DNA from: an uncultured Pseudomonadales bacterium
Lineage (GTDB): Bacteria; Patescibacteriota; Microgenomatia; UBA1400; UBA1449
Direction of reading: 5' to 3'
DNA: 59,561 nucleotides
Assembly: GCA_964386355.1 (NCBI GenBank)
Contig: CAYLQQ010000007.1
Location: 1 to 59,561 of the forward strand
A program made the translations under genes and the position numbers. The notes under the pieces were generated by a model, which worked only from the letters and a program-made list of their open reading frames with translations, was not told the DNA's origin and made no database searches. Numbering within the stretch: the stretch's first letter is position 1; each line of letters starts with the position of its first letter. Shown one piece after another: positions 31,712-48,736 of the stretch.

Positions 31712-31948
31712 ATGTATTATTACAAAGGTCATAGAGTAGATCACTTAATGCAAGGATTAGCAGGATTGCTGTTATTGTTGTATTTCTTATTTAAATTCAT
31801 TCATAATACGTTTTACGTACCCTATATAATCCGAAAAGAATGTAGAATATCTGCTGATGCGTGGAACAAGTTAGATGGGACAATTCACAATGAATATTTT
31901 CAGGAGTGTTTAAAAAATTTTGGAATAGTATCAGAGGACACGAAATAA
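31712..31948 (+). CDS. small single-TM hypothetical protein
   Basis: 78-aa ORF with one hydrophobic segment (GLAGLLLLLYFLFKF). Coding status uncertain. Confidence 0.3.
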   Translation: MYYYKGHRVDHLMQGLAGLLLLLYFLFKFIHNTFYVPYIIRKECRISADAWNKLDGTIHNEYFQECLKNFGIVSEDTK

Positions 31949-31955
31949 TACCCAA

Positions 31956-32375
31956 CTAATTCCTCTGCCTCACAATCATCTGCTCAAGGTTTTCATATCC
32001 TATGAGCGAATCTTTCTTTTCAGATAGCAATCGGCCTTTTTTTGCATAATCCTGCATAGCACGTATTTTTCTTCGCATAACTCTTGGTAAGTTGATCTTT
32101 TCGTTTACTATTAGCCCCGTTACTGTCTGCCGTTGATGTTTGCGCAATATCCGAATCTTTTTCTTTTTCTGGATTGCGTATCCATAGTCATGTAATATCT
32201 TTCGTATCAAAGGAAAGATTTGTTGGGTAGCAGATGTAAACGTTTTAAAAGAAAAGGTCATATCATCAGCATAGCGACTATACGTTCCGCCAAACTTTTG
32301 AGTCAGCCTGGATAGTCTTGTATCCATTTGATAGTTAACCAGATTACTCAAATAGGGACTGGTTACTGGCAGTGC
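31956..32375 (-). pseudogene. retron-type reverse transcriptase, C-terminal half (split gene)
   Basis: The frame is open upstream of the listed Met and reads ...LPVTSPYLSNLVNYQMD...YSRYADDMTFSF (YADD)...RQTVTGLIVNEKINLPR (retron VTG motif). It lacks RT motifs 1-4, which are found at 51006-51530. Confidence 0.8.
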
Positions 32376-32478
32376 CGGTATAGAACCTTGTTGTCGCTAT
32401 AACTCGCGTTCGAGACTCTGGTAATTGGCAGTGCCGGTATGGAACCCCTTCGTCGCTATAACTCGAGTAAAACGAGAC
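32367..32478. repeat. two tandem ~50-nt direct repeats at the left junction of the inserted element
   Basis: Copy 1 (32367-32416): TGGCAGTGCCGGTATAGAACCTTGTTGTCGCTATAACTCGCGTTCGAGAC. Copy 2 (32426-32478): TGGCAGTGCCGGTATGGAACCCCTTCGTCGCTATAACTCGAGTAAAACGAGAC. Confidence 0.7.
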
Positions 32479-32520
32479 AAATGAGACAGTATAAAAAAGA
32501 GAATTGATCATACAAAGCTA

Positions 32521-32549
32521 TTGACATTGTACACACATGTATATACACT
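32521..32549 (+). promoter_or_regulatory. putative sigma70-type promoter of the RHH/Shedu gene pair
   Basis: TTGACA (32521-32526), 17 nt, then TACACT (32544-32549), just upstream of the 32556 ATG. Confidence 0.3.
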
Positions 32550-32555
32550 AGCTCT

Positions 32556-33440
32556 ATGAGAAAAAATCAAGTCATTAACATAACATTATCCGACGATTTG
32601 TTGCAGGCAGTCGATAAACAGGCTGAGATTGAATTAAGGAACAGGAGCGAGCTGTTCAGAGAAGCGGTACGGACGTATCTGTTTAGTAAAAATGCTGACA
32701 AGATGCATCAGGCGTTTACTGACAATGAATCAAATAGAGTGAACGACATAAAAAAATTCTCTGATTTTGAAAATTCCACTACTTTTGCATTGTCATGTTC
32801 GTTTCGACCACAACCAAATAAAGTTGAAGAGATTTTCTCTGGTAGCGGTTCCGACTTAATAAAGTACATTGAAGACCCGACGAGCTTCAGACGTATGGGA
32901 TGGGATATGAGAACGCTCGGGAGGGCTACTCCGGTAGCTGGTGAGTACCTACAGATAACAAATGGCGACCGCAAAATTATCAGGATTTATAGAGATGGAC
33001 AGATTGTATTTGCTGCAAGTGAAGATTTTTTTGGACATGGGGTAGAAGTTAATGAAGATGAGGTTGGTAAAATTTTCAGATTTAACAGCATGGCATCTGC
33101 TGAGTTGATATCAAATTTTGTCAATTTTTCTCTGGAAATCGGTAAATACCTGTCGGTTGATCCCTCCGGTATTGTTTATAAAATACGGATTTTCAATCCC
33201 AAAAGAAAACACCTTGAATTAACTTCCATAAACATGTTTAAAGAGAAAATGGGAGAATTGACACTCGATTTAGCTGACAGAGAGGTTTTTATCACTAGTG
33301 AAGATTTTAAGCCAGAAAAAATTGCTTTTACCATATGGGCCGAATTTAACTATCTTTTCGGAATTAGTGAAGACCACTTTGTTTATGTAGATAGAGGAGC
33401 AAAATTAATGAACTTCGAACAATTTTCAGAGAAGAGATAA
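32556..33440 (+). CDS. ribbon-helix-helix (CopG/Arc-like) domain protein with ~240-aa unknown C-terminal domain
   Basis: N-terminus INITLSDDLLQAVDKQAEIELRNRSELFREAVRTYL matches the RHH pattern. I cannot assign the rest. Confidence 0.6.
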   Translation: MRKNQVINITLSDDLLQAVDKQAEIELRNRSELFREAVRTYLFSKNADKMHQAFTDNESNRVNDIKKFSDFENSTTFALSCSFRPQPNKVEEIFSGSGSDLIKYIEDPTSFRRMGWDMRTLGRATPVAGEYLQITNGDRKIIRIYRDGQIVFAASEDFFGHGVEVNEDEVGKIFRFNSMASAELISNFVNFSLEIGKYLSVDPSGIVYKIRIFNPKRKHLELTSINMFKEKMGELTLDLADREVFITSEDFKPEKIAFTIWAEFNYLFGISEDHFVYVDRGAKLMNFEQFSEKR

Positions 33441-33442
33441 AT

Positions 33443-34621
33443 ATGGGTGAAAAGCAATTAATACAAGTCGATGTAAAAAATGATCGGTCTTTGAGCAAAT
33501 TGGGAACAGTTACAGTTTTTTTAACCCCTGAACTCAAAAAAGAGCTAGATGATGAAAAAACTAAAAATGGAGAAACACTGTCAGTTCTTTTTGCTCGAGG
33601 TATGGCTCTTAGAGGATTTAAGCATCTAGTTGAGAAAATTAGAGAGAAAAATCCCTCTATCAGAATAGTATTTACTCATGAGGCTACTTCAAAAGCCGAT
33701 GGATCAATCTACGTTGACTACGACGGCTACAAAAAAGCAACGTCGCAAAAGTTTTTCTCTTTTTATCGAGAAACCGGATTAGATGCAGCAAGTTATTATC
33801 TTAATCACTGTTTTCCAACTGAATACGCATACGACTCTTCTAAGGTATCCGAAGCCGACGTTAAAAAGTTTGAAAAAAATTTTGAGCAAGTCATATCACA
33901 GGTGCCTAAAAAAAGAAAAAATAAAAAGGCGTTAATTGACCAAACCTCTAAGGTAATATCAGAATTGTCAGCACAAAAGAAAATGCTAAAACAAGAGGTT
34001 GAGGATCTCGAAAAGCTTCGCAATACTTCAAATATCTTTTTCTTTCAAAGTAGACTGGAAGAACTTAAAGATAGACTCACAAAAACTTATCCTGAAACAA
34101 AAGGAAAGAACTCATGGCAAGAGTGGGTATATAAAAACAATTGGCTTTTTGGCATTAACTACCAACCCCCTATAGAAAAACAAAAAATTAACGTCGCAGG
34201 TAGCATGCCCGATTTTATCTTCCCCACAATGGACGGCTTTCTGGATATCTTAGAGATAAAACTCCCATCTAAAGCAATAATTGTTAAAGATGTTGATCAT
34301 AATAATTCTTTTGCATGGTCAAGCGATGCAAATAAAGCAATTGGTCAAGTCGTAACCTATTTAAACGAAATCGAACTGTATCAACTTCACTTAAGAGATG
34401 AAATCAAGCGTGTTTATAATTTTGACATTTATTTAATTAAACCTAGAGCTTTTATTTTGATAGGAAACAAAAATGGTTGGTCGGAAGAGCATCATAAAGC
34501 ACTTAGAAAACTCAACTATTCCCTTCATGGAATAGAAGTTTTGAGTTATTCTGACCTTTTGCAAAGAGGCAATGAAATTATTACCAACTACACCTATAAA
34601 TACTCAACAACTAGCAATTAA
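33443..34621 (+). CDS. Shedu-type (SduA, DUF4263) PD-(D/E)xK nuclease
   Basis: C-terminal SWQEWVYKNNWLFG...MPDFIFPTMDGFLDILEIKLPS...AIGQVVTYL...KPRAFILIGNK...LNYSLHGIEVLSYSDLL follows the DUF4263 pattern. Variable coiled-coil N-terminus. The start lies 2 nt after the RHH gene stop. Confidence 0.7.
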   Translation: MGEKQLIQVDVKNDRSLSKLGTVTVFLTPELKKELDDEKTKNGETLSVLFARGMALRGFKHLVEKIREKNPSIRIVFTHEATSKADGSIYVDYDGYKKATSQKFFSFYRETGLDAASYYLNHCFPTEYAYDSSKVSEADVKKFEKNFEQVISQVPKKRKNKKALIDQTSKVISELSAQKKMLKQEVEDLEKLRNTSNIFFFQSRLEELKDRLTKTYPETKGKNSWQEWVYKNNWLFGINYQPPIEKQKINVAGSMPDFIFPTMDGFLDILEIKLPSKAIIVKDVDHNNSFAWSSDANKAIGQVVTYLNEIELYQLHLRDEIKRVYNFDIYLIKPRAFILIGNKNGWSEEHHKALRKLNYSLHGIEVLSYSDLLQRGNEIITNYTYKYSTTSN

Positions 34622-34632
34622 TCAAATCCTTT

Positions 34633-36288
34633 TTACTTATCGTTAATATTTGCAATATTAGTTTTTGACTCTTGTTTAGAATATTTTTTCAGAAATTCCT
34701 GATTTTCCTTTACTAAATACACTGTGAAATAAGCATTTCCACTTTTGTCGAGTAAATCCCTGCCGTGTAACACGCCTTCTCGCCTCAATTTTTTGATAGA
34801 GGAGGGGTGGACTTCATGTTTTGATTGAATATCCCATTTCTCAAACCACACCTTCTTATCCTCATGGCGTGATTTTATATATGGAATGGTTTTGTTTTTG
34901 ATATTTCGCCAACAATCAGCACATCTCAAGCCATCCGGATTCCACCAAATTTCATTACCAGGATGGAGCTGGCTGCAAATACCACAATTGTAAGGGCCTT
35001 CACTAGCCTCTAAAAAGAAACCCTCAGGTTCATCCTTTAACCTTCGTTTGCGCATATTTTCAACACCATCATGTTCGCCAAAAAGTCGAGCCAGTTGCAC
35101 TAAATTATGAGAGGAATACTTTTGCCGCAACTCTTCACTGATTTTAGGTTTTGGTTTGGGTGCCTCTTTCTTACCCGCTAGTTTCAACATGTCTTCTTCT
35201 TGTTCATATCCTTTTAATCTGCCTTCCAAATATCCCAGACGATAATAGACACTGTTGGATACTAGACGCCAATTAGTATCTTCGAGCGTGTTTTTGACCA
35301 ATTTTTCTAGTTCTGACGCACTCGCTCTGTCTTTCCTGGATGAATCACTATCTTGAACCGTAAAGGGGACAATTACATATTTGCCGATTTCCGGTTTATC
35401 CAATGAGAGTTTGGTATATCGAGCTTCCTCCAGGGTAGTGGCAAGAAGTTTCTCTAAATCAGCAATAGTTGTCTTTTTGAGTTGAAGCGACCGCTGGTAA
35501 ACCGGACTATCATATTTTTGGGTTTCTTCTTCCCGAACCACAGTGGCTACCTCCATAGCCTCCATCAACTCGATATATTCTTTACCCTCCTTATCGGTTA
35601 AACAGAACTCACTGCGATATTTTTCCAACAGTTCTTTGTCTTTTTGTTGCTTAGCCTTCCATTCAGCGTCACTCTTTTCAAAATCATCAACCTCAACTTC
35701 TTTGTATTTACATGAGCTGCAAGTAATGGTGGTAGTTAAAACTTTTCCTTTCCGTTTGTATTTTCGTTTAAGTTCTTTACCACATTTTGGGCACGGTTCC
35801 GGAGTTGATACTCTTTCTTCGCCATCATCATAAATCCCACGGCGCTTCTTACACTTCAGGCACTCAAACATAAATAACACCCTCAGAGGTTTGTTATCGT
35901 CAAAATCTTCCAAGTGCTTAAAATCACCCGCCGTCATTTCAGTGTTGCAAGCAGAACAGAAAATATTTGATGGAGCAGGGGTGTTATCCAGCCTATCTTG
36001 TTTTACCCTATCTCGTTCAACCCATTCGGCAATTGTTTTCTCTCGTCTGCGATACCGCTCACCCTTAGTTACCCTCAGTTGCCAACCGTAATAATAATTG
36101 AAACCCTTTTCAACTTCTTCTGGAGGAATTTTCTTTAATTGTTTATCAGTATCTTTTTTCTTGTATAAATTCTGCCAAAACTTAACAACATGTAAGCATT
36201 CCTTTATTGTGAAAAGGTCATATAAGTCGTTATAGTGTTGTTCATCTTTTAGGTAGTCCATCATCTTCATTAGATGGTTCAGCAACAT
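34633..36288 (-). CDS. multi-zinc-ribbon protein, unknown function
   Basis: 551-aa ORF; the start is probably one of the Mets at 36261-36270. CxxC pairs: CSAC...CLKC, CPKC...CSSC, CGIC...CADC. No enzymatic motif recognised. Overlaps the 3' end of the DUF2130 gene. Confidence 0.5.
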   Translation of the reverse strand: MLLNHLMKMMDYLKDEQHYNDLYDLFTIKECLHVVKFWQNLYKKKDTDKQLKKIPPEEVEKGFNYYYGWQLRVTKGERYRRREKTIAEWVERDRVKQDRLDNTPAPSNIFCSACNTEMTAGDFKHLEDFDDNKPLRVLFMFECLKCKKRRGIYDDGEERVSTPEPCPKCGKELKRKYKRKGKVLTTTITCSSCKYKEVEVDDFEKSDAEWKAKQQKDKELLEKYRSEFCLTDKEGKEYIELMEAMEVATVVREEETQKYDSPVYQRSLQLKKTTIADLEKLLATTLEEARYTKLSLDKPEIGKYVIVPFTVQDSDSSRKDRASASELEKLVKNTLEDTNWRLVSNSVYYRLGYLEGRLKGYEQEEDMLKLAGKKEAPKPKPKISEELRQKYSSHNLVQLARLFGEHDGVENMRKRRLKDEPEGFFLEASEGPYNCGICSQLHPGNEIWWNPDGLRCADCWRNIKNKTIPYIKSRHEDKKVWFEKWDIQSKHEVHPSSIKKLRREGVLHGRDLLDKSGNAYFTVYLVKENQEFLKKYSKQESKTNIANINDK

Positions 36289-37642
36289 CGGGTAATTCTA
36301 AATAACTTACTTTTGGCAGAGCGTTACCTATCAAGCCTTGTAAATCACCATAGATTCCAGATGTATTGGCCATAACCTTCTGTATACTCTTTTCTTCTTC
36401 TTGCCACTTTTTATTAAAGTAAACACGCTCCTTGTTGATTTTCTCTTGTCTCTCACGGAAGTATTCCACCCACACTTCAATCCGCTGTTTGAACTCATTG
36501 CTAATTAGGTAGTTGTACACCACTTCAGCTTTGGTGGCTTTGCCTTCGTTGGCCAGCTGGGCCGACTGAACCTTAATCAACTGTTGCCGGAGAAGATATG
36601 CCACTCCTAGAACAGCCTTCATATCAGAAACCAACACTCCATCAACCGCACCAAAACCAACTATTTGATTCGGTAAGATGTTGGATACCAACACTGCCAA
36701 ATCAGCCTTAACCGCTCTTTGGTCTTCTTTAAGCTTGGGGATCCACGAAAATGTCCAATTCTTGGTTCGTTTCGACTCCCAAATGACGACTCCGCAAGGT
36801 TTACCCACCTGAGTCCTCACCACTTGCAACACATCGGCGCCGTTGACGCCTTTTGGAACTTCTTTGATTTCGTCAAATGGAAACTCAGCCTTGAGGATTT
36901 GTTCCAATTCCAACTCTTGAACCTCCCCCTGGAGCTGTTGTGAGCCCTGTTGGATCTTGCGTTGTAACTCAAGAATCTGTTTTTCGGCATCCTGGAGCTT
37001 CTTATCCTTTTCGGCAATCTTTAGGTCTAGCTCCTCTCTAGCTTCTTTTTTGGCATCATCTTTTATCTTGTCCTGACCTTCGAGTAACTTCTTCTCATAT
37101 TCAACTGACAATTTGTCTTTTTCATCCTTGAGTTCACGCATTTGTTTAAGCAAGTCTTGGAGTTGATCCCGCAATTCTTTATTCTGCTTGTCCCTAGCCT
37201 CTGCTTCCTCCTTGGAGGCGGCTAGCTGGGTTTCTAGCTCTTTGCGAACTTTCTCCTCCGCTTCTTTTCGTGCTTCTTCGGATGATTTCTTGCGAACCTC
37301 GTCCAACTCCTGCTCGTGTTGTCTTCTTGTCTTAGCCTTATCCTCTTTCAACTCCGACAACAACTTCTGATTGTCTTCCAATTCTTCTTTGAGTTGGCGG
37401 TTCCGTCTGGCGTTCGAGTCTGCTTCCTTCCTAACCGCTTCTACCGTGACTTCCAGCTCCTCTTTGGCTTTTTTCTCTACCTCAGCTTTAGTTGCCTCTG
37501 CCACCTCTTTTTTGGCTTCTTCTAGATCCTGCTGATGTTGGGCTTGTGATTCACGACGAATCGTTTCCTCAAGCTCGTGCTTGTATGCATCTCCTGGTTC
37601 GAACAACTCTCCACACTTTGGACATTTGATTTGATTTGTCAT
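36242..37642 (-). CDS. DUF2130-like protein (N-terminal zinc ribbon, long K/E coiled coil, C-terminal nuclease-like domain)
   Basis: IKCPKCGELFE, then ~200 aa of a K/E-rich heptad-like region, then GADVLQVV...GVVIWESKRTKNW (D...ExK-like). Confidence 0.6.
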   Translation of the reverse strand: MTNQIKCPKCGELFEPGDAYKHELEETIRRESQAQHQQDLEEAKKEVAEATKAEVEKKAKEELEVTVEAVRKEADSNARRNRQLKEELEDNQKLLSELKEDKAKTRRQHEQELDEVRKKSSEEARKEAEEKVRKELETQLAASKEEAEARDKQNKELRDQLQDLLKQMRELKDEKDKLSVEYEKKLLEGQDKIKDDAKKEAREELDLKIAEKDKKLQDAEKQILELQRKIQQGSQQLQGEVQELELEQILKAEFPFDEIKEVPKGVNGADVLQVVRTQVGKPCGVVIWESKRTKNWTFSWIPKLKEDQRAVKADLAVLVSNILPNQIVGFGAVDGVLVSDMKAVLGVAYLLRQQLIKVQSAQLANEGKATKAEVVYNYLISNEFKQRIEVWVEYFRERQEKINKERVYFNKKWQEEEKSIQKVMANTSGIYGDLQGLIGNALPKVSYLELPDVAEPSNEDDGLPKR

Positions 37643-37660
37643 ATAAATTTACTCTGTATT

Positions 37661-39745
37661 TTATTTGGTGATCGACCTTACTAAAGTTGCGAGTACCGAC
37701 TGCGAGCTGACTTCAACATTATCAATAATTTGCTGAGCATAACTAATACTCATAGCTTTTTGCCTCTCTAAATCACCTAAGATATCATCCAAAAGTTCAC
37801 CAATTCTATGTTGCTCATCATATTCAGGGGCTGGGAATTGGAGTTTTCTAATATGTCGATCGTTTAAAGCTGGATAGTGTGCGCCTCGCATTAACAAGTG
37901 ATATTGGTTGATAAGCTGTGGTGAAATAAGCATATAGTAGAGAAACTTAGGATCTGCTTGGTTATCGCTTCTTAGCACCGCAAATCCTGTTGAGCAAATT
38001 TGGTTATCAAATGCCTCTGTTACGACAGCGTGCCCGCACAGGTATGGTCTAACTGTGGATAGAACTACATCCCCTTCACGAATAACACGTCTTGCTCGAG
38101 ATGGAGCTTCAGAACCTAGTATTAATTTTACATTTTCGAATGTATTTAAACTAACCGAAGAAATATCAACATACTGAAATTCTGTTTTAGATGATTCTTT
38201 AGCAGGATTTCTATTTTCAGGATTTATCTTCACTCCCATTTCTTCCAAAGTTTTAAGAGGGTATCGATCTAACTTACTAAGTATTGGCGAAATCAAACGA
38301 ATTGACTTAGCTAACCCATCAACACTTGAATCTAATCTATCGCACGAACGATTAAGCTCCTCAGATAACTGGTTAATATCCCTAATCACAACTCCGCCAG
38401 TTTTTTTCGGGTGATGTAAATCTAAATTAAATTTGTCTTCTCCGACTGCTTCCCTGGTTACCTTCCAAGCATATTCGTTTTCAACTCTTTCCCCCCACCA
38501 AGAATTTAATGGTTCAAACTCTTCATATAAGAGGGGTTTTGATTTTATATAGCAAGGATTCTTTAGTTTCTGTCTGTCAGGAGGTAGTGGGTGGTCATAA
38601 TACCAAATATGTTTAGTCTTATTCTGTTTTTCAATAAATACTAATGACGTTTCTTGATCTGTATAAGGAGAAAACACTCCCTTTGGTAGTTTAATGATTG
38701 AATGCAAGTTAAAGTCATCTAAAAGCGCCTGTTTTATTTTTTGAGCAACACCTTCTCCAAACAAAAACCCTGGAGGTAACACTATTCCACATCTCCCTCC
38801 ATTTTTTAATAACCTCATAATATATTGCATAAAAAGCAATGTTGTTTCGGCTGTCCTCATACTCATCGGGAAATTGTCCTGGATGCCTTTTTCTTCCTCA
38901 CCACCAAATGGAGGGTTAGTTAGGATTACGTCAAACTTGTCCTTTTCGGTAATTTCCTTGAGTGGAGTGGTTAGCGTGTTTCGACGCTGAATGTTGGGAG
39001 TCTCGATACCATGAAGCATCAAATTCATTGTGCCAAGAAGATACGGCATTGGCTTTTTCTCAATACCAAAGAAGGTTTTGTATTGAAGCTGGTCATAATC
39101 CTCGGCTGTCTTGGCTTGCTGCTTCATATACTCATATGCTTCCACCAAGAAACCACCAGTGCCACAGGCCGGGTCCAAAACCTTCTCTCCTAACTTTGGT
39201 TTAATATGCTCCACGATGAACCGCACCACTGGCCTGGGGGTGTAAAACTCACCACTCGAACCGGCAGCGTCTCGCATCTCCTTGAGCATACTTTCATAAA
39301 GATGGGAGAGGGTAAAAATGTCGTCTTTGGATTGAAAGTCAATTTCATCGATAAGATTGATTATTTCTCGAAACAGGTAGCCCGACAGCATTCGATTGTA
39401 GGTCTCGGCAAAAAGCGAGGCAAGAACGTCTCTAGGATCATTCTCTTTAGTTCCCTTCAACTCTCTTAGGTAAGGTATCAACTTATCGTTTACATACTTG
39501 ATCAAGTCATCACCAGTGATTCCCTCGTCGTTACTTGCCCAATCTCGCCAGCGGTGTGGCTTTTCGATTACTGATCGATGACCGGAAATCAGGGCTTCAT
39601 TGCGCTTCTCTAGATCGTCAAAAAACTTAAGAAACAACATCCACGAGAGCTGGGGTGTGCGATCGACATCCGTCGACAACCCCGCGTCCTTGCGCATTAT
39701 GTTTCTGGCTCGTTTAATGATGCTGGTTAGTTGTTGTTTTTTCAT
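37661..39745 (-). CDS. hsdM: type I R-M N6-adenine methyltransferase fused to a single-TRD specificity (HsdS-half) domain
   Basis: HsdM_N (PQLSWMLFLKFFDD). Motif I DPACGTGGFL. Motif IV NPPFGG. C-terminal ~200 aa has an HsdS target-recognition pattern (FQYVDISSV...GDVVLSTVRPYL...STGFAVLR...FLYYML) plus one conserved helix. Confidence 0.85.
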   Translation of the reverse strand: MKKQQLTSIIKRARNIMRKDAGLSTDVDRTPQLSWMLFLKFFDDLEKRNEALISGHRSVIEKPHRWRDWASNDEGITGDDLIKYVNDKLIPYLRELKGTKENDPRDVLASLFAETYNRMLSGYLFREIINLIDEIDFQSKDDIFTLSHLYESMLKEMRDAAGSSGEFYTPRPVVRFIVEHIKPKLGEKVLDPACGTGGFLVEAYEYMKQQAKTAEDYDQLQYKTFFGIEKKPMPYLLGTMNLMLHGIETPNIQRRNTLTTPLKEITEKDKFDVILTNPPFGGEEEKGIQDNFPMSMRTAETTLLFMQYIMRLLKNGGRCGIVLPPGFLFGEGVAQKIKQALLDDFNLHSIIKLPKGVFSPYTDQETSLVFIEKQNKTKHIWYYDHPLPPDRQKLKNPCYIKSKPLLYEEFEPLNSWWGERVENEYAWKVTREAVGEDKFNLDLHHPKKTGGVVIRDINQLSEELNRSCDRLDSSVDGLAKSIRLISPILSKLDRYPLKTLEEMGVKINPENRNPAKESSKTEFQYVDISSVSLNTFENVKLILGSEAPSRARRVIREGDVVLSTVRPYLCGHAVVTEAFDNQICSTGFAVLRSDNQADPKFLYYMLISPQLINQYHLLMRGAHYPALNDRHIRKLQFPAPEYDEQHRIGELLDDILGDLERQKAMSISYAQQIIDNVEVSSQSVLATLVRSITK

Positions 39746-39748
39746 AGG

Positions 39749-41449
39749 CTAAAACGGAATATCATCCTCCTCTGATTCTGTTTCTAAATTTGGTTCAGAA
39801 CTGCTAGATGAAGAAGTCAGTCCGAATAACTCAATGACCCTACTAATAAAAGCTGGCATTTGGGACAAGCCAATATCTTTGGCGTAATCACGTGCCTCTT
39901 TTATTTCACGCCACTTGTTTTTTTTGTGAGACTGTAAACCACACGCATCCTGAAAATTATTCTCTAGTGCAATTACATTTTCACCAAACGTATTCAAACT
40001 ACTGTTAATGACGTCATTCTGTGAATCCTGCTGTTTTAGCGCTGCTAATTTAAGAGTATTGGGAGGAGTTTTGCTTTCTTCGATAGCAACTCTTTCCTTC
40101 ACGTCTTCGTCAGTATCGTATAAGGCAACCCACTTAATTTGACAAACTTCACAAACTCTTATTAGGAAGTTGAGTTTTGTCTTCCCTTCAGCTGAAATTA
40201 CCACGATGTTTAATTCTTCGGGTTTGAATCCCAACCTCTCGAGCATCGTTGGTATTGAATGTTTTTCGGTATCACCCTCAACAAGAACAACATAGTCGGC
40301 AAAAAATATCTCGTTTCGTTCTTGATTAAATTCAGTGAGAAGTTTTATTTCGTCTTTTTCGTCACTCGTAAGACTGCCATTCTTTTTCTTTTCGTCTGTT
40401 GAAGGTGATTTTCGAATAATTCTTATATCTTCGGCGCTTGATGAATCCACAAAATTTGGAGAGTGTGTTGTGTAAAAAATTTGAGTTCCTACACCACCAT
40501 CAGTGGGGTACGCAATTTCTCTAAATTCCCTAAACAGTTGCCTTTGGGCTTGTGGGTACAAAAATATTTCCGGCTCCTCGATGGCCATAATTGCAGAGGA
40601 TTTCATTAGCTTGCCATAAGTTAAAAATAGCGAAAGCAAAACAAGATTTTGCACACCAGAACCCAATTCCTCGACGTTAAAGTTACCTAAAGTTTCGGAT
40701 CCAATTATTTGAATAGTTTTGTAGTAAAACAAAGGATCGTACACTTCCAAATCAAGTTCAAAATGTTCGGCTAAACCCTTTGAGTATTGTTTACAGATAG
40801 CCGTAAACAAGTTCTTAAACTTGGCATAATCCAATCTATCGTGAAACTCTGATTCTAAAATTGCTCTTGGCTGGCGCATTGCCTCCTTAAAAACCATTTC
40901 CAAGGGTTGGCCATTGTCGTCTGATGCACGCCTGAAGTTTTCATCAATTTTTTTCAAAATCTTACCTAATAATGTCCAATTACTTACGGATAATTGTTTA
41001 TCGAGGCTTCGTTCTGATGGTAAATATATGAAGTTGATTTGGTCCCTAGCTTCACTAGACGCCCAAAACTTCCTTCCATCATTGGTATAAGCGAAAAAAC
41101 TGTGTGCACCGAAATTGACTTCAGGATTTCTTGTGTGGGTGAGCTGCAGAGAAATTGGCTGCACAGCTTCTTTTAGTCGAGAGTCACAAGATGTTAGCCG
41201 ACAACTCCCTAAAGGCTGATCGAACCAAATTTGAACAGATATTGTCTTGTTGGGGTCTCTTTGATAGAAGTCGTCCTTTGTAAAAGCCCTTTCGGTTGGG
41301 TAAGTTTCACCTAAAACAATATCCAACGCCTTCAATATGTTTGTTTTTCCAGAGCTATTTGGACCTACTAAGCCACTTAACTTGGCAACGTCGTCAAGTT
41401 CAAGATGTTCTATCGATCTAAAATTTTCAATTATTATTTTGTTAATCAT
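39749..41449 (-). CDS. OLD-family ABC-ATPase / Toprim nuclease with SSB-like acidic C-terminal tail
   Basis: Walker A GPNSSGKT. Signature-like LGSGVQN. Walker B IMAIEEPE. TTHSP. Toprim VVLVEGDTE and ALYDTDED. The C-terminus is SSSSSSSEPNLETESEEDDIPF. Confidence 0.8.
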   Translation of the reverse strand: MINKIIIENFRSIEHLELDDVAKLSGLVGPNSSGKTNILKALDIVLGETYPTERAFTKDDFYQRDPNKTISVQIWFDQPLGSCRLTSCDSRLKEAVQPISLQLTHTRNPEVNFGAHSFFAYTNDGRKFWASSEARDQINFIYLPSERSLDKQLSVSNWTLLGKILKKIDENFRRASDDNGQPLEMVFKEAMRQPRAILESEFHDRLDYAKFKNLFTAICKQYSKGLAEHFELDLEVYDPLFYYKTIQIIGSETLGNFNVEELGSGVQNLVLLSLFLTYGKLMKSSAIMAIEEPEIFLYPQAQRQLFREFREIAYPTDGGVGTQIFYTTHSPNFVDSSSAEDIRIIRKSPSTDEKKKNGSLTSDEKDEIKLLTEFNQERNEIFFADYVVLVEGDTEKHSIPTMLERLGFKPEELNIVVISAEGKTKLNFLIRVCEVCQIKWVALYDTDEDVKERVAIEESKTPPNTLKLAALKQQDSQNDVINSSLNTFGENVIALENNFQDACGLQSHKKNKWREIKEARDYAKDIGLSQMPAFISRVIELFGLTSSSSSSEPNLETESEEDDIPF

Positions 41450-41450
41450 A

Positions 41451-43856
41451 TTAGTTGGTGTACAAATATTCCTGCATCTGGTTAGCAGCTTCTAAATACT
41501 GGTCTCGGCCGCCAAAATAGTTGATGATGTCCACTGGTGTACCGTATTGATTGAGTGGCTCCACGTTGAGAATCCGAATCACTGGTGGAATCTGATCCTC
41601 TTCTTTGGCAACGGGTGACAACTCCTCGATGCCGTGTTCGGCGTACTTCTCCAGCAAAATCTCAATTACTTTGCGAGCCTCGGGACTGTATTTATCCAAA
41701 AACGACTGTTTAAACATCCTCAACTCTTTTACTCGCTCGCGCCTGGATTTGATGGCTCCGTTGAAAGCTATGTGGACTAACAAATCTAGAGGATCGGCTT
41801 CGGGGTTATCCGTTGTTTCCATCAGTAATTCAAGCGAAACACCCCGCTTCATCAATTCCTCAACCAATTCCCACCTCTTCTTAGTGTCAAGCCAGTTTTT
41901 GCGAAGCTGGTAAGCATCGTTAAACAGTTGTCTAATTACAACCTTGGTGTAGTCGGTCAATTTGGTCAGCTCTAGTCGCTTGCCATCGGCTCCCAACTGA
42001 TACTCGACCTCGTGAACAATAGAGGCGGGAATTTCATCAACGTAGTACTTTCGTGGCGCTCGATATTCTTCATCGTCACCATCTCTTACCATCATCGGTT
42101 GCTCTTGTTGCTCCTGCTCCTCGATGGCTTGTTCTTCTTCTGGAGTCGGTTCGGTTTCGAATGTCTCCGATTTAGTAACGTCACCTTCCTCATTGATCTC
42201 TTCCTCACTTAACAACTCCGGGTCACCATCAAACTCAGGATCAGCGAATAGCCTGGTGGCCCCTGTGTAGTCAAGAATAGTGAACCAAAGTTTGTCTTTG
42301 TCAGTGAAAAGCCGTGTCCCACGTCCGATGATTTGCTTAAAGTCAGTCATCGAATTGATTGGTTTAAACAACACAATATTTCGACAAGTTGGCGCATCCA
42401 CGCCAGTAGTTAACATTTGAGAAGTGGTCAAGATGATTGGTGATTTAGCTGGGGTATCACGTTCGGGGTCTTGGAAGTCGTCCAAATATTGCCTGCCAAT
42501 ATCTCCCTCATCCGACACTACCCGAACACAGTAGTTGGGATAATCCTTGGTGAAATCAGTGCTGAGGTTATTGATAGCCTTACGCATCTCATCTGCGTGT
42601 TCTTGATCCACACAAAAAACGATGGTCTTAGCCAATGGATCAGTCTTATTGAGGTAATCGACTAAATGTTTAGCTACGGCTTGGGTCCTGCTCTTGATCG
42701 ACAAAATTCGCTCAAAGTCCTTGGTGGTATATTCCTGATCAGGGATTTCATTACCGTAGCGATCCACCATTCCAGTTTCTGGCCGAAAACCAGTAGCATC
42801 CACATCGGTTACCACTCTTCTAACTTGGTAGGGAGCCAAAAATCCATCGTCTATACCATCTCTTAGTCTGTAGGAGTAGATAGGGTTGCCAAAGTAGTTG
42901 TAGGTGTCCACATTGTCTTTGCGTTTTGGCGTGGCGGTTAAACCAATCTGGGTGGCGTTACTAAAATACTCCAAAATCTCCCGCCACCGGCTTTCATCCT
43001 TGGCACTACCTCGATGACACTCATCAACTACAATCAAATCAAAAAAATCGGGTGAATATTGTTTGTAAAGTGGCGGTCTAGTGGAATCACCACAAATTGC
43101 CTGATAAATGGCAAAGTAAACCTCGCGTGCTTTGTTGGCTTCTCCTTGAATCTTCCAAATCGCATCACCCATTGGATAGAAGGTTTTGTCCTTGGCTTGA
43201 TCAACCAACACATTCCGATCGGCCAAAAATAGAATTCTTTGTTTGCGTTTTGTCTTCCACAACTTCCAGATGATCTGGAAGGCTACGTATGTTTTGCCTG
43301 TACCAGTGGCCATCGTGATTAAGATCCGCTTCTTACCACTGAGGGCGGCGGCCGTCGCACGATTGATGGCGATTTCCTGATAATACCTTGGTTTCTTACC
43401 ACCAATATCTCGGAAACTAGGGAAAAGGAAATCTTGCTCAACCTCAGGCGATATCTGTTCTGCATCACGAGTTCGTTGCCACAACTCTTGAGGAGAAGGA
43501 AAATTGTCACGACTTAATTGTTGACCGTTAGTAAAGTCAAACTCCTCGATGCCTTTACCATTAGTGGAGTAAGCAAAGTGAAGACCAAGAATCTGAGCAT
43601 ATTCTTTTGCTTGCTGCATTCCGTCACCTGGATTCCTATAGTCTGCCTTAGCCTCAACTACACCTAGAGCAATATCTCGGTTGAGTCGCAACAGATAGTC
43701 AGCCTTTTTGCCTTTTTTGCGAAAATGCTTTTGTCCCACCACCACAATTCGACCATCAGTAAAGTAGTGTTGTTCGTTTATTTGGTCATCATTCCAACCA
43801 GAATCATACAACTTAGGGAGAATATATTTACGACATGTATCTGCTTCGTTTGCCAT
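41451..43856 (-). CDS. hsdR: type I restriction enzyme R subunit
   Basis: N-terminal PD-(D/E)xK (ADYLL...GVVEAKA). SF2 helicase motifs MATGTGKT, VVDECHR, GLTATP and QIIGRGTR. Confidence 0.9.
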   Translation of the reverse strand: MANEADTCRKYILPKLYDSGWNDDQINEQHYFTDGRIVVVGQKHFRKKGKKADYLLRLNRDIALGVVEAKADYRNPGDGMQQAKEYAQILGLHFAYSTNGKGIEEFDFTNGQQLSRDNFPSPQELWQRTRDAEQISPEVEQDFLFPSFRDIGGKKPRYYQEIAINRATAAALSGKKRILITMATGTGKTYVAFQIIWKLWKTKRKQRILFLADRNVLVDQAKDKTFYPMGDAIWKIQGEANKAREVYFAIYQAICGDSTRPPLYKQYSPDFFDLIVVDECHRGSAKDESRWREILEYFSNATQIGLTATPKRKDNVDTYNYFGNPIYSYRLRDGIDDGFLAPYQVRRVVTDVDATGFRPETGMVDRYGNEIPDQEYTTKDFERILSIKSRTQAVAKHLVDYLNKTDPLAKTIVFCVDQEHADEMRKAINNLSTDFTKDYPNYCVRVVSDEGDIGRQYLDDFQDPERDTPAKSPIILTTSQMLTTGVDAPTCRNIVLFKPINSMTDFKQIIGRGTRLFTDKDKLWFTILDYTGATRLFADPEFDGDPELLSEEEINEEGDVTKSETFETEPTPEEEQAIEEQEQQEQPMMVRDGDDEEYRAPRKYYVDEIPASIVHEVEYQLGADGKRLELTKLTDYTKVVIRQLFNDAYQLRKNWLDTKKRWELVEELMKRGVSLELLMETTDNPEADPLDLLVHIAFNGAIKSRRERVKELRMFKQSFLDKYSPEARKVIEILLEKYAEHGIEELSPVAKEEDQIPPVIRILNVEPLNQYGTPVDIINYFGGRDQYLEAANQMQEYLYTN

Positions 43857-43936
43857 AGATCAAATTTTTCTTAATTACTCAGACATTATTTTACCACCAG
43901 ACTAAATACTTAGTCATGCTTAGATTTAAGTTTTTG

Positions 43937-43966
43937 TTGACAATAATATCGCGGATATGCTAAATA
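43937..43966 (+). promoter_or_regulatory. putative promoter for the ParB-methylase/terminase operon
   Basis: TTGACA (43937-43942), 17-18 nt, then CTAAAT/TAAATA. It is followed by a ~130-nt leader with a 9-bp hairpin (43981-44010) and a strong RBS AAGGAGG before the 44101 ATG. Confidence 0.3.
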
Positions 43967-44100
43967 TTATATAAAGATATTTGTCCTTCAAATTCATGAC
44001 CGAAGGACAACTCGCATAGAAGGCGGGTGTTAGAGAACTATTACAAAAATATTTCTCTGGCATCCGCTTTTTTGGTTGTCAGATCATAAGGAGGTCGCTT

Positions 44101-45432
44101 ATGACAGCACCCAACAATAATTTAAAAGTCGAGTATGTTCCTATCGAACAACTCAATCCAGCCATATATAACCCACGTAAATGGTCTGATGAGAAGACTA
44201 AACAATTGAAGGAAAGTATTAAAAAGTATGGTTTGGTAGATCCATGCGTAGTTAATCAGTCAACTGGAAGAGAGAATATTGTAATTGGCGGACATTTCCG
44301 GTTAAAAGTTGCCAAAGAGCTAGGTTATAAAACTGTCCCCGTTGTTTATCTCAATATTCCCGACATTGACACTGAGAAAGAGCTAAATATCCGGCTCAAT
44401 AAAAATCTAGGCGAATGGGACTGGGAGTTATTAACTAATTTCTCTGAAAAATTGTTAGATAATATCGGCTTCACCAGTCAGGAACTCGATAATATTTTTG
44501 ACATTGATACCGATAATCCCGAACAGTTCGACCTGCAAAAAGAACTAGAGAAACTTGATATTCACCAGGTCACCATGAAGAAGGGTGAAGTATACAAGCT
44601 TGGTGAGAGCAGGCTTATGATTGGGGATTCGACCATTAAAGATGATTTTTTGAAGCTGATGAATGGTGAAAAGGCGGATATGTGCTTAACGGATGAGCCA
44701 TATCTCCTTGATTACACTAACGCAAAGCGTCACGGAAAGCCTACAACCGGATTCGGAGCCAAGCGTAATCGCAGATATCTTGAGACTGAAACTCTGCCAC
44801 CCAACTTTATTTCACTTTGGATGGCTAACGTGGCAAAAACCGCCAAGCCCGATTTTAGTATTATCTCCTATGAGAACTGGAAAAACGTTAGAGCCATGTG
44901 GAATGAAATGGAAAAATACTGGAAAGTCCGCAATATGCTGATTTGGCGGTTACCAAACCGGCACCAGGGATTTTCAGCCAAGTATAGGTTCTTCTCAAAA
45001 TATGATATTGCAATGATAGGCACGGGAGGAAAAAGAGAACTAAATACGGCTGCTGAAGAAGAACTTCTGCAAAATGAATATGAAACGGCTTTATTTGCAA
45101 CTTCTGGCAAGCCTCATTGGGAAAGTTATCAGAAGGGCAAGAAAAACCAACCCACTGACTTTATTGAGTTCAATGCTTCCGACGAAAAACACTCCGGACA
45201 AGGGGTAATCTTTGGCACCAAGCCGATTGAGATTCTAATCCCGTACATCAAAGTTCTCACCAAACGGGGTGATCTGATTATTGAACCCTTTGGCGGTTCG
45301 GGTAGCACATTGATTGCTGCCGAGAAAATGAAACGACGCTGTTATGTGATGGAAAAAAGCCCGGTCTATGCCGAGGTAATTCGCAAACGCTGGGAAAGAT
45401 TAACCGGACAGAAAACAGAAAGGATCATATGA
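44101..45432 (+). CDS. ParB-like nuclease domain fused to DNA (N4/N6) methyltransferase
   Basis: ParB box YVPIEQLNPAIYNPRKWSDEKTKQLKESIKKYGLVDPCVVN...GGHFR. Methylase motif IV-like TDEPY. Motif I IIEPFGGSGSTLIAAEKM. Confidence 0.85.
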   Translation: MTAPNNNLKVEYVPIEQLNPAIYNPRKWSDEKTKQLKESIKKYGLVDPCVVNQSTGRENIVIGGHFRLKVAKELGYKTVPVVYLNIPDIDTEKELNIRLNKNLGEWDWELLTNFSEKLLDNIGFTSQELDNIFDIDTDNPEQFDLQKELEKLDIHQVTMKKGEVYKLGESRLMIGDSTIKDDFLKLMNGEKADMCLTDEPYLLDYTNAKRHGKPTTGFGAKRNRRYLETETLPPNFISLWMANVAKTAKPDFSIISYENWKNVRAMWNEMEKYWKVRNMLIWRLPNRHQGFSAKYRFFSKYDIAMIGTGGKRELNTAAEEELLQNEYETALFATSGKPHWESYQKGKKNQPTDFIEFNASDEKHSGQGVIFGTKPIEILIPYIKVLTKRGDLIIEPFGGSGSTLIAAEKMKRRCYVMEKSPVYAEVIRKRWERLTGQKTERII

Positions 45433-45863
45433 GCACCAAAACTATTGCTAAACGAATCCAGAAACAACAGGAACAATTCCTAGAACAGTGCCGGAAGCTA
45501 CCCATTATTCAGGTAGTCTGCGAAAGATCCGGTATCAGTCGGGCAACTTATTACAGATGGCGCAAAGAGTTCCCAGATTTTTCTAAGGAAGCTGATCAAG
45601 CCATTCAGGAAGGCAAATTACTGGTTAACGATATGGCGGAGTCACAACTGCTAAACGCTATCAAAGACCACAATATGACTGGAATCATTTTTTGGCTGAA
45701 ACACCACCACCGTGATTACGCCACCAAGGTTGAAATATCCACCGCCCCCAAAGACAAAGAGAATTTAACCAAAGAGCAAGAAGATTTAGTTAAAAAATCT
45801 TTGGTGATGGCCGGACTTATCGGAGAAAGGAGGCAGGATGAAGCCGATAGAGCCAATGAATGA
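45429..45863 (+). CDS. HTH protein, terminase small subunit-like
   Basis: ERSGISRATYYRWRKEFPDF HTH. ATGA overlap with the methylase gene and a 26-nt overlap with the terminase large subunit gene. Confidence 0.5.
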   Translation: MSTKTIAKRIQKQQEQFLEQCRKLPIIQVVCERSGISRATYYRWRKEFPDFSKEADQAIQEGKLLVNDMAESQLLNAIKDHNMTGIIFWLKHHHRDYATKVEISTAPKDKENLTKEQEDLVKKSLVMAGLIGERRQDEADRANE

Positions 45864-47394
45864 GAATCTTCTACGCCAGATTAACACCAGTCGAAGCTTC
45901 AGGCGAAAATTAGCCACGAGCAGCCATTACTGGTTTTTCCATATCTACTTTAGCCACTACATCAAGTACCAGACTGCTGATTTTCAAAAGGAGATGTTTA
46001 CCATCACTGAAAATGAGCAGAATAAACTGGCAGTGATTGTGGCTTTTCGGGGATCAGCTAAATCCACCATTGCTTCATTGTCCTTCCCGATCTGGGCAAT
46101 GCTGGGTAAATTGCAGAAGAAATTTATTATCATCACCAGCCTGACATCTAATCAAAGCAGGTTACTACTCACCGCTATCAAAAATGAGTTAGAAACCAAT
46201 GAACTACTGATCAATGATTTCGGGCCATTCGATGAAGACGATCAGGAATGGCGGTCTAATTCGTTAGTGATCAAAAAATACGGAACCAGAATCTCATCCT
46301 TCTCTACCGGAGAGGCTATTCGTGGCTCGAAGCACAACCAATACCGCCCTGACCTGATTATTTGTGATGATATAGAAGATTTATCGTCAGTTAAAACCAA
46401 AGAGAGCCGTGATAAAACCCATCAATGGTTAACCGGAGAAGTGATTCCGGCGGGAGACACCAATACCAAGGTGGCCGTAGTCGGTAACTTACTACATGAA
46501 GACTCGGTTATCTGCCGATTGGACGAGAATATTAATGAAGGCATTCTTAGTGGAGTGTTCCGTAAATACCCACTCCTGGATGGGCAGGATAGGTCGCTGT
46601 GGCCGGGTAAATTTCCTGATCAGCAGTCAATTAAAAATCTACAAAGCCAGGTAGCCAATGATCAGGCTTGGCATCGGGAATATCTACTCCACATCATCTC
46701 TGATGCGGAAAGGGTCATTCATCCAGAGTGGATCCAATACTATGATCGGTTGCCGGGAAAAAGTAACCCCACTGGGTTTCAATTTATAGCTACGGGGGTG
46801 GATTTAGCCATTTCCCAAAAACACTATGCCGATAATACGGCTATGGTTTCGGTACAAACCCATCGGATCGGGAGTAGGTACATGTTCTACATCCTACCCA
46901 ATCCGATCAATCAAAAACTATCGTTCCCGGATACCGAGCAGATGCTAAAAGATATTTCCATGCTCCTAGACTCATACCTATATATAGAGGAGGTTGGATA
47001 TCAGGCATCTATTATTCAGGATTTGACGCAGGATGGCTATCATGCAACCGGGGTCTCACCCAAAAGCCAGGACAAAAGAACCAGGTTATCATTAATCTCG
47101 CACCTAGTTAAAAACGGAACCATACTGTTTCCCAAGTTCGGCTGTGAAGATTTAATCAAACAAATGGTCGGTTTTGGCATCGAAAAGCATGATGATCTGG
47201 TTGATGCCTTAACCACCCTAATTCTGGGCATCATAGGCAAGCCTCCGTATACAGGAGAAGTAAGAGCTGTTCCAATTGAAAATTTCTACAACAGCAGGAT
47301 TATCTCGTCCCGAAGCGATGATTGGGCAGAGGAAGAAGACAGACAGATATTCAGAAAGTTAAAGTCCCGAAACCATCATCGGATTTACGGTTAG
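45838..47394 (+). CDS. phage terminase large subunit-like protein
   Basis: Walker A-like VAFRGSAKST. Walker B DLIICDDIED. Nuclease-domain acidic residues (GVDLAIS..., KHDDLVDAL). Confidence 0.7.
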   Translation: MKPIEPMNENLLRQINTSRSFRRKLATSSHYWFFHIYFSHYIKYQTADFQKEMFTITENEQNKLAVIVAFRGSAKSTIASLSFPIWAMLGKLQKKFIIITSLTSNQSRLLLTAIKNELETNELLINDFGPFDEDDQEWRSNSLVIKKYGTRISSFSTGEAIRGSKHNQYRPDLIICDDIEDLSSVKTKESRDKTHQWLTGEVIPAGDTNTKVAVVGNLLHEDSVICRLDENINEGILSGVFRKYPLLDGQDRSLWPGKFPDQQSIKNLQSQVANDQAWHREYLLHIISDAERVIHPEWIQYYDRLPGKSNPTGFQFIATGVDLAISQKHYADNTAMVSVQTHRIGSRYMFYILPNPINQKLSFPDTEQMLKDISMLLDSYLYIEEVGYQASIIQDLTQDGYHATGVSPKSQDKRTRLSLISHLVKNGTILFPKFGCEDLIKQMVGFGIEKHDDLVDALTTLILGIIGKPPYTGEVRAVPIENFYNSRIISSRSDDWAEEEDRQIFRKLKSRNHHRIYG

Positions 47395-47443
47395 TCTACC
47401 GACACTGCGCTTGACTTGACCAGTTGTTGCGGTACTGTTTAAC

Positions 47444-48736
47444 TTGATGCAACAACAGATTATCACCGACGATCAGGCTAAATACTGTCTCTATGCCCGC
47501 AAATCAACTGAAGGCGATGAGCGACAAGCCATGTCGATTGATTCCCAAATCAAAGAGATGACAGCCATTGCCAATAGGGACGGGATTCAGATCACTGATA
47601 TCAGAGAGGAACGATTTTCAGCCAAGATGTCCGGCTCAAGGCCAGTATTTAATAGTATTCTGACTGACATCCGCAGTGATCACTTTAATGCGATTTTGAC
47701 TTGGGCTCCTGACCGCCTAAGTAGAAACGCCGGAGATCTGGGGATGCTCGTGGATCTCATGGATCAGGGCAAGCTTCAATTTATTAAGACCTTCTCCCAA
47801 ACCTTCACCAATAGTCCCAATGAAAAATTTCTACTTATGATCCTCTGTAGTCAGGCTAAGCTGGAAAACGACAATAAAGGAATCAATGTCAAAAGAGGCA
47901 TCAGAGCCAAATGTCAGATGGGCTGGCGACCCGGCATGGCTCCACTGGGTTACTACAATCGGGCATTCAACGGAGTTAAGGATATTATTATCGATCCGGA
48001 GCGAGGTCCGAAAATCACCGAGGCCTTTGAACGGGTGGGGATACATGGAAAAAGCGGTTGGGATATCAAACGCTGGTTTGATAAAGTCGGATTTCGCAAC
48101 CGCTCCGGAGCCAAAGTCACTATCAGCCAAGTATATCTGTTACTCAAAAACCCGTTCTATTATGGTGAATTTGAGTACCCACTGGATAGTGGAAGCTGGT
48201 ACAAAGGCTCGCATCCGCCACTAATCAGTAAGGAACTATTTGAACAGACCCAGGAACAATTGAAGGTGCCTCAAAAATCCAAATGGGGTGCCAAGCAGTT
48301 CACATTCAAAGGACTATTTAAATGTGGAGAGTGCAGATCGACCATTATCGGTGAGGAGAAGTTTAAAAAGCTATTAAACGGCAAAACCAACAGACATGTT
48401 TACTACCATTGTTCCAAGCAATTAAATCAGTGCCGACAACCGTACCTGAACGAAAAGGCAATGTTAAAGCAATTACGGGATCTAGTCGCCAATCTGGATG
48501 AAAGCAAACTCAAGCTCTCTTACGGACTGAAACTAAAAATTGATGCATATCGCAAAATTCAGCAGGAAGTGTTTATTCAACACAACCTCAACCCGACCAA
48601 CCAGGAATCATCGCTAAAGCAATATGCGCTATTCACCTTATGGGAAGGAGCCAGTCAGGATCAGAGAGAATTAATCCAGGGACTAAACCTCAATATCGTC
48701 CTCAAAGATAAACAAGTAGAGATCAAAAATAGTTAG
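47444..48736 (+). CDS. large serine recombinase (integrase)
   Basis: Resolvase catalytic domain YCLYARKSTEGDERQAMSIDSQ...TWAPDRLSRN. Recombinase domain (GWRPGMAPLGY). Zinc ribbon CGECRS...YYHCS. Coiled-coil tail. Confidence 0.85.
   Translation: MMQQQIITDDQAKYCLYARKSTEGDERQAMSIDSQIKEMTAIANRDGIQITDIREERFSAKMSGSRPVFNSILTDIRSDHFNAILTWAPDRLSRNAGDLGMLVDLMDQGKLQFIKTFSQTFTNSPNEKFLLMILCSQAKLENDNKGINVKRGIRAKCQMGWRPGMAPLGYYNRAFNGVKDIIIDPERGPKITEAFERVGIHGKSGWDIKRWFDKVGFRNRSGAKVTISQVYLLLKNPFYYGEFEYPLDSGSWYKGSHPPLISKELFEQTQEQLKVPQKSKWGAKQFTFKGLFKCGECRSTIIGEEKFKKLLNGKTNRHVYYHCSKQLNQCRQPYLNEKAMLKQLRDLVANLDESKLKLSYGLKLKIDAYRKIQQEVFIQHNLNPTNQESSLKQYALFTLWEGASQDQRELIQGLNLNIVLKDKQVEIKNS

Follow-up and report, generated by a model that had tools for sequence, protein, structure and literature searches.

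The window analysed here, a 59,561-nucleotide (nt) stretch of a contig from an uncultured Pseudomonadales bacterium, carries a gene of the OLD family of ATPase-nucleases (old) whose product ends in a peptide resembling the C-terminal tip of SSB, the bacterial protein that binds single-stranded DNA. The old open reading frame (ORF) begins with ATG, terminates with TAG at 39749-39751 and is embedded in a type I restriction-modification operon in which the hsdR, hsdM and hsdS functions are all present and co-oriented with old across gaps of 1-3 nt (Table 1). The hsdR stop codon lies 1 nt from the start of old, and hsdM starts 3 nt past the old stop. The HsdM protein of this operon is unusual for a type I system in carrying a single fused HsdS domain, with no separate hsdS in the operon.

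Table 1. Features of the old locus and of the surrounding island in the window
Feature	Coordinates	Strand	Evidence or context
old gene, Class 1 OLD-family ATPase-nuclease, 566 amino acids (aa)	39749..41449	-	Pfam, PADLOC, 6P74 sequence and Foldseek matches
Toprim nuclease domain of OLD, residues 382-447	40109..40306	-	OLD-like_TOPRIM PF20469, 2.2e-16; invariant E391/G392, D445xD447
Disordered Ser-rich/acidic linker of OLD, residues 543-559, ..LTSSSSSSEPNLETES	39773..39823	-	Low confidence in the AlphaFold2 model; K/R-poor stretch in homologues
C-terminal tip EEDDIPF of OLD, residues 560-566, short linear motif like the SSB C-terminus	39752..39772	-	Sequence, homologue logo, SSB C-terminal consensus
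hsdR, type I restriction subunit, 801 aa	41451..43856	-	ResIII, EcoEI_R_C, HSDR_N; PADLOC REase_I 8.9e-235
hsdM fused to one HsdS target-recognition domain, 694 aa	37661..39745	-	N6_Mtase 1e-68, HsdM_N, Methylase_S residues 557-664; PADLOC MTase_I 1.2e-178, Specificity_I
DUF2130 protein, 466 aa, coiled-coil N-terminus, next in operon	36242..37642	-	PF09903, 6.3e-63
Zinc-ribbon protein, 551 aa, 47-nt overlap with DUF2130 gene	34633..36288	-	Weak Zn-ribbon matches
Large serine recombinase	47444..48736	+	Resolvase, Recombinase, Zn_ribbon_recom
tRNA-His	30925		Island boundary
Reverse-transcriptase fragment, 131 aa	31956-32351		Island content
Ribbon-helix-helix (RHH) gene and gene with Shedu SduA C-terminal domain	32556-34621		Island content
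ParB_N-N6/N4 methylase	44101-45432		Island content
Terminase-large-like gene	45838-47394		Island content

The product of old had been called an OLD-family nuclease in a sequence-only reading of this DNA, and the call was borne out by Pfam and PADLOC searches and by sequence and fold matches to the structure 6P74. Its N-terminal ABC-type ATPase matched AAA_15 (2.8e-37) and AAA_21 (2.1e-22), the top PADLOC model was Old (3.7e-45), ahead of many GajA models, and the nearest solved structure by sequence was the Class 1 OLD of Thermus scotoductus (6P74; phmmer E 1.4e-43, residues 1-516). With an AlphaFold2 (AF2) model of the protein (predicted local distance difference test, pLDDT, 87; predicted TM-score 0.81) as query, Foldseek again placed 6P74 first (E 3.7e-31, TM 0.64/0.70), followed by GajA proteins at ranks 2-5 and the OLD protein of Retron-Eco8. 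The main homologue set comprised the best 120 homologues, 33-56% identical to the window OLD, and homologue counts here and below are counts of database clusters, not of independent events. Across this set the Walker A residues G34-K35, the Walker B region I-E291-E292-P-E294 and the H-loop H329 were invariant, as were the Toprim residues E391-G392, D445 and D447 (the catalytic Glu and DxD). Because of this invariance the enzyme looks catalytically intact and active.

The surroundings of old contain no UvrD-like helicase (as in Class 2), retron reverse transcriptase or non-coding RNA (Class 3) or separate Toprim gene as in the split AriA/AriB (Class 4) next to it, its neighbours being hsdR and hsdM-S; the gene is therefore Class 1 by arrangement. 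The sole reverse transcriptase-like ORF of the window is a 131-aa fragment 7 kb from old, and the PADLOC match to AriA is limited to the ATPase part of the fused 566-aa protein. By all the sequence, predicted-fold and arrangement features that define the group, the window OLD belongs among the Class 1 OLD nucleases.

The globular body of the protein comprises residues 1-542 and is followed by a 24-residue disordered acidic stretch with the SSB-like tip at its end. Positions 39749-39820, which hold the final 23 codons and the stop of old, encode the C-terminal residues LTSSSSSSEPNLETESEEDDIPF (in a longer stretch, ...GLTSSSSSSEPNLETESEEDDIPF, then TAG). In the AF2 model, computed with 120 sequences, residues 543-566 have low pLDDT (mean 47 over 551-566) and no secondary structure follows the helix of residues 533-542. 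The model of a Peribacteria homologue (P0004, genome CP082927.1), computed with 59 tail-bearing sequences, likewise left the tail undocked with pLDDT below 50, though this protein has a longer conserved tip (..YDSDIKVEDLPF). A scan of alignment columns of the globular part for association with the tail found no enriched basic residue, and the top columns look phylogenetic. The tail is thus predicted to be free and not folded back, and the predicted anatomy, a short linear motif held by a flexible tether, resembles SSB's own tail. The SSB C-terminal consensus is MDFDDDIPF in Gram-negative and IDISDDDLPF in Gram-positive bacteria (PMC5531588). The sequence-only reading had described a Ser-rich flexible linker followed by an acidic DDIPF tip and had likened the tip to that of SSB; the ORF sequence and the low pLDDT agree with the former, and EEDDIPF agrees with the published consensus. 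Of the 308 ORFs in the window (stop to stop, at least 50 aa), OLD alone combines an acidic end with a last residue that is hydrophobic or aromatic. Searches for an OB (oligonucleotide/oligosaccharide-binding) fold gave no Pfam match to an OB fold or SSB in OLD, and phmmer with E. coli SSB returned nothing in the window and the fetched loci. Because it has no OB fold, the OLD protein is a putative mimic of the SSB tail and not an SSB. A beta-clamp-binding motif (QL[SD]LF type) was also considered for the tip and rejected, because the tip lacks Gln and carries Pro at -2.

Conservation of the tip, which the sequence-only reading had named as a check on its proposal, was then followed in the homologues, and the tip was found in about half of the clade across many phyla. 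A PF ending occurs in 59/120 homologues and [DEN][ILVM]PF$ in 50/120; most of the PF-ending sequences fit [DE][DEN][IL]PF after an acidic, basic-poor linker of variable length and composition. In the logo of the 59 tail-bearing sequences, F at -1 and P at -2 are invariant, position -3 is I in 33 and L in 16, position -4 is D in 41 and N in 8, position -5 is D in 18 and E in 17, and a hydrophobic residue is frequent at -8. This upstream hydrophobic position is as in SSB (compare PIDIDDIPF, DEINFDDIPF and SDIKVEDLPF with MDFDDDIPF and IDISDDDLPF). A search of 1.84 billion cluster representatives added distant OLD representatives, of which 26/146 end in PF (DDDIPF, DDEIPF, DDLPF and others) after linkers of different composition, some of them Pro-rich. 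Tail-bearing homologues have 21-56 residues after the conserved Pro532, a K/R-poor stretch with 18.5% Glu in which, past the final helix, Ser, Asn and Asp are abundant as well. Such varying linker length and composition fits what is expected for a tethered short linear motif. As a background, only 2 non-OLD ORFs with this ending were present among 5635 ORFs of at least 70 aa (94 sequences, 1.43 Mb of loci). The tail, as judged from these sequences, is more than chance, because the tip recurs in homologues and the ending is almost confined to OLD genes.

In a neighbour-joining tree of the globular part, tail-bearing members are dispersed throughout, and the trait requires 22 or more state changes. 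Tail-less members mostly stop directly after the last helix, decayed endings such as DISF, DLPL, DLPFQ and DDDF are present among the homologues, and a search downstream of tail-less genes found no tail relics. The scattered trait, the number of changes and the decayed variants together fit, as the simplest history, an old ancestral tail that was lost many times and is probably under selection in many lineages.

The taxonomic spread was surveyed in 80 loci from GTDB genomes, whose labels are those of metagenome-assembled genome (MAG) bins and in some cases conflict. Tail-bearing genes carry MAG labels of Peregrinibacteria, Peribacteria, several Patescibacteria groups, Fibrobacter, Bacteroidetes, Gammaproteobacteria, Acetobacteraceae, Acidobacteriaceae, Anaerolineae and Saganbacteria, cultured Peptoniphilus and Anaerococcus contribute one tail-bearing cluster (the P0241 cluster, with Peptoniphilus duerdenii), and the nearest homologues of the window protein come from candidate-phyla-radiation and related MAGs. 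The window protein itself recurs on a contig of run SRR11845627, and P0085, of a MAG labelled Gammaproteobacteria, ends in ...NPDDIPF. Among the archaeal-labelled loci, five are tail-less and three are tail-bearing (L020, L039, L056), the latter with doubtful assignment: one is a 3.4-kb contig and the other two share their OLD C-termini with bacterial bins. The C-termini are identical between L039 (Bathyarchaeia) and L044 (Pseudomonadales), which also share matches to the flanking gene, and between L056 and L058, labelled Nitrososphaeria and Actinomycetota. At least one bin of each pair is mis-assigned, and with identical C-termini across conflicting bins the archaeal tail records are therefore not trustworthy. 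On plasmids and phages, tblastn found only distant OLDs, and those of Mesorhizobium, Bacillus badius, the Phaeobacter Gabija system and P2 Old all have no tail; no close tail-bearing homologue was found on viral contigs.

Genes of the OLD clade were seen in type I operons (L026, L033, L052, L053, L055, L090, L027, L031), in type III operons (L024, L042, L066, L049, L012) and with MmeI or N6-methyltransferase (N6-MTase) genes (L039/L044, L082, L011, L068). Tail-bearing genes stand alone in complete-genome or long-contig cases (P0004, P0090, P0085), where they lie next to serine recombinases, and they also occur in type I operons, in a type III operon (L024, between mod and res) and after MmeI/N6-methylase genes. 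Tail-less relatives occupy the same kinds of place, including positions within type I or type III operons (L027, L031, L052, L090, L049 and a B. badius plasmid). The tail is therefore not a peptide for one particular neighbour, since its bearers stand alone, lie by recombinases or sit in three types of restriction-modification locus; a looser association with restriction systems is possible. Large serine recombinases flank OLD homologues in L005 (6340-7914), L009 (10045-11682)/L030, L051, L054 and L056/L058, as one at 47444-48736 accompanies old in the window, and in some loci the two genes are only a few bases apart. This recurrent pairing suggests small recombinase-borne cassettes that carry the nuclease.

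We tentatively favour, at somewhat less than even confidence, the reading that the tail is a selectively maintained mimic of the SSB C-terminal tip that acts in trans and recruits host helicases and exonucleases that ride on SSB. The tip would dock in the hydrophobic and basic SSB-binding pockets of replication, recombination and repair proteins, for which the candidates, by their E. coli names, are ExoI, RecJ, RecQ, PriA, RecG, RecO, chi, Topo III and DnaG. A nuclease without a partner helicase of its own, unlike Gabija GajA with GajB, could in this way be tethered to host helicases and exonucleases at the ssDNA-rich replication and recombination intermediates of invading DNA, and in the window operon it would form a second layer beside the co-transcribed type I restriction enzyme. 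Since almost all bacteria have the SSB hub, a plug of this kind would stay functional after horizontal transfer, which fits recombinase-borne islands. The occurrence of the tip on OLD proteins across many phyla suggests an undescribed way to plug such nucleases into the replication and repair machinery. There is a precedent in phage SSB-like proteins, which retain FDDDIPF and engage host factors such as SbcB (bioRxiv 10.64898/2026.04.29.721553).

Several observations weigh against docking on SSB partners. The two closest homologues of the window protein (P0002 and P0003) have no tail, as is true of half of the clade. The OLD tip usually has two acidic residues before [IL]PF compared with three in SSB, with N at -4 in 8/59, and the OLD linker is Ser/Glu-rich whereas that of SSB is Gly/Pro/Gln-rich. 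The Peptoniphilus/Anaerococcus member ends in DDEIPF, in contrast to the LPF of the Gram-positive SSB consensus, so that any match to the host's own tip may be a loose one. No host ssb was found with the E. coli SSB query (phmmer) in the 59.5-kb contig or the fetched loci, including viral ones. P2 Old has no such tail and ends in ...EDFIKWI, and a C-terminal hemagglutinin (HA) tag on Vibrio cholerae OLD left its phage-defence phenotype unchanged (PMC12392090). The tail is therefore accessory and not a core requirement of OLD proteins. The AF2 models are of monomers, with which docking of the tail in trans within an OLD oligomer remains compatible. Tail-bearing genes are also enriched near restriction-modification genes, within 3 kb of which lie 14/30 tail-bearing and 7/45 tail-less genes (p=0.004, phylogeny ignored and restriction-modification genes detected with a handful of reference proteins only), with 12/23 compared with 5/23 among the closer relatives (p=0.065).

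The same conservation, disorder and context-independence data would equally suit a tail that is a decoy of the host SSB tip, bound by phage proteins that need host SSB and thereby releasing the ATPase-gated nuclease, the main rival, which we consider unlikely but worth taking seriously. The tail would then be the sensor of a one-gene abortive or defence system, with Red-beta/RecT-type annealing recombinases and phage replication proteins as candidate triggers. Red-beta reportedly binds the C-terminus of E. coli SSB, and lambda escapes the interference of P2 Old by losing red and gam, but P2 Old itself has no such tail. Several OLD-containing or related systems respond to SSB or recombination functions of phages, as described for Retron-Eco8, Hachiman and Nhi (PMC12904381; PMC10568477). 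However, the Retron-Eco8 trigger acts through the SSB OB fold on multicopy single-stranded DNA (msDNA) without need for an SSB tail, and the acidic tail of T7 gp2.5 is dispensable for it (bioRxiv 10.1101/2025.11.11.687766). Auto-inhibition is distinctly less probable; here the acidic tail, imitating DNA, would cover the DNA-binding or Toprim surface, either its own (in cis) or that of another subunit of an OLD oligomer (in trans), and keep the nuclease off until displaced. The linker is acidic and K/R-poor, the acidic tails of E. coli SSB, T4 gp32 and T7 gp2.5 auto-inhibit their own OB folds, and self-inhibition of this kind would be compatible with either model in trans as its off state and may coexist with it. 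The tail was undocked with pLDDT below 50 in the two AF2 models, which is weak evidence; no basic residue of the body co-varies with the tail; and the linker spans 21-56 residues. In particular, plain electrostatics would not require the SSB-identical P-F-COOH in many lineages, and the retention of P-F-COOH and the acidic residues is the reason why docking in trans is favoured.

The packing of old, only 1 nt from hsdR and 3 nt from hsdM, and the enrichment given above would also suit a tail that tethers the nuclease to the surrounding restriction-modification enzyme, HsdR or HsdM. We nevertheless hold this to be very improbable: 16/30 tail-bearing loci, including P0004, P0090 and P0085, have no detectable restriction-modification gene within 3 kb, the partners have three unrelated architectures (type I, type III, MmeI/N6-MTase), type I and type III operons hold tail-less OLDs as well, and the enrichment weakens among close relatives. 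The ending could finally be a by-product of chance or composition, for instance if the ribosome-binding site of hsdM, the next gene downstream, constrains it, and the codons GAGGAGGAT do hold a GGAGG run upstream of the hsdM start. This run lies about 20 nt from the hsdM ATG, beyond typical Shine-Dalgarno spacing, and the tip is retained by stand-alone genes and by members of different phyla, against a background of about 2 in 5600 ORFs. The ribosome-binding-site constraint was rejected on spacing and on conservation in stand-alone genes, and absence of function is, on the conservation data, effectively refuted.

The window OLD shares with the Class 1 OLDs 6P74, Vibrio cholerae OLD and P2 Old the fold, the catalytic residues and a location on a mobile or defence island, but differs from them in its SSB-like tail and in lying between hsdR and hsdM and not alone. 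In the searchable literature, the coverage of which is incomplete, no OLD, Gabija or PARIS protein was found described with an SSB-like tail. With the tail of bacterial SSB the OLD tail shares a variable disordered linker, acidic residues, a terminal [I/L]-P-F and a frequent upstream hydrophobic position; in contrast to SSB, the motif is borne by a nuclease without an OB fold and would compete with SSB. A parallel exists in phage T7, whose gp4 helicase-primase and gp2.5 have acidic C-terminal tails ending in Phe. There, too, a Toprim-domain enzyme has an acidic, aromatic-ended tail that mimics the tail of its cognate SSB and shares a docking site on a partner, but the T7 proteins serve phage replication, end in ...DF and not ...[IL]PF, and have a known partner, T7 DNA polymerase.

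Defence genes within restriction-modification operons have precedents in PrrC in EcoprrI and in the Campylobacter rlo genes (RloA, an ATPase, and RloB, Toprim-like). PrrC, the rlo genes and PARIS resemble the window OLD as ABC-ATPase or Toprim-type effectors between hsd genes, plausibly a second defence line coupled to restriction, but the window OLD fuses ATPase and Toprim as in Class 1. To our knowledge, no SSB-like tip has been reported for PrrC, rlo or PARIS systems. PARIS, an anti-restriction sensor (PMC12392090), has a separate AriA ATPase and AriB DUF4435 Toprim protein, in contrast to the window, where both domains lie in one 566-aa ORF. GajA of Gabija, a Class 2 OLD, has the same domain pair and accounts for many of the PADLOC matches and for the Foldseek ranks given above. 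Unlike Gabija, the window has no GajB or UvrD-like helicase beside old, where the only adjacent helicase is that of hsdR, whereas true Gabija pairs are present in two of the fetched loci (L013 and L021). The tail might do the work of a dedicated helicase partner by bringing in host helicases. In Class 1 OLDs no partner explains how invading DNA is found or sensed, whereas the partners of Classes 2, 3 and 4 explain targeting, and a conserved SSB docking peptide offers a concrete handle on the targeting of Class 1. If docking on SSB partners is true, an immune effector would here have acquired a copy of a bacterial short linear motif, which would be rare. C-terminal tags may inactivate the tail-bearing subset of OLDs.

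A second family came to light in one of the fetched loci, where a 336-aa TIR_2-domain protein (L068:11711-12721, plus strand) ends in ...NDIIEDLPF. Its gene directly follows those of a tail-less OLD and an MmeI-type restriction-modification enzyme. In the corresponding TIR family (Bacteroidota-type, P0291-P0410), the last or the second-last residue is aromatic in 109/120 members, with a ..[DE][DE]xLPF ending in 30/120 and endings such as ..SEVDLW or ..KTSAW in others. With this family, SSB-like or acidic-aromatic tips may extend to a second group of defence proteins. That SSB-tip mimicry is a portable sensor plug of several unrelated defence families (OLD, TIR), acting as decoys of the SSB hub whose binding by a phage recombinase or replication protein would switch the effector on, is a further reading but, in our estimate, a rather improbable one.

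The operon belongs to a larger region (30925-48736) that looks like an integrative defence island between tRNA-His and the large serine recombinase, which is likely the mobility gene of the island. Besides the genes of Table 1 the island holds GrpB and a helix-turn-helix gene. The window DNA is low in GC (37.7%) and encodes a bacterial Elp3 and a short UvrC. A search for attachment-site repeats of the island found nothing convincing. A 22-nt repeat, one copy of which (30914-30935) overlaps the 5' end of tRNA-His while the other lies 95 nt upstream (30819-30840; 86% identical), may be an integration scar. Homologues of the 551-aa zinc-ribbon protein lie 0.25-5 kb from OLD homologues in three other genomes (phmmer; L016 1e-19, L050 4e-07, L091 7e-49), and this multi-zinc-ribbon protein, encoded last in the operon, may be a further component of the system. 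Adjoining the reverse-transcriptase fragment, two tandem 51-nt copies (32359-32468), 84% identical and 59 nt apart, may be the remnant of a structured RNA of a retroelement.

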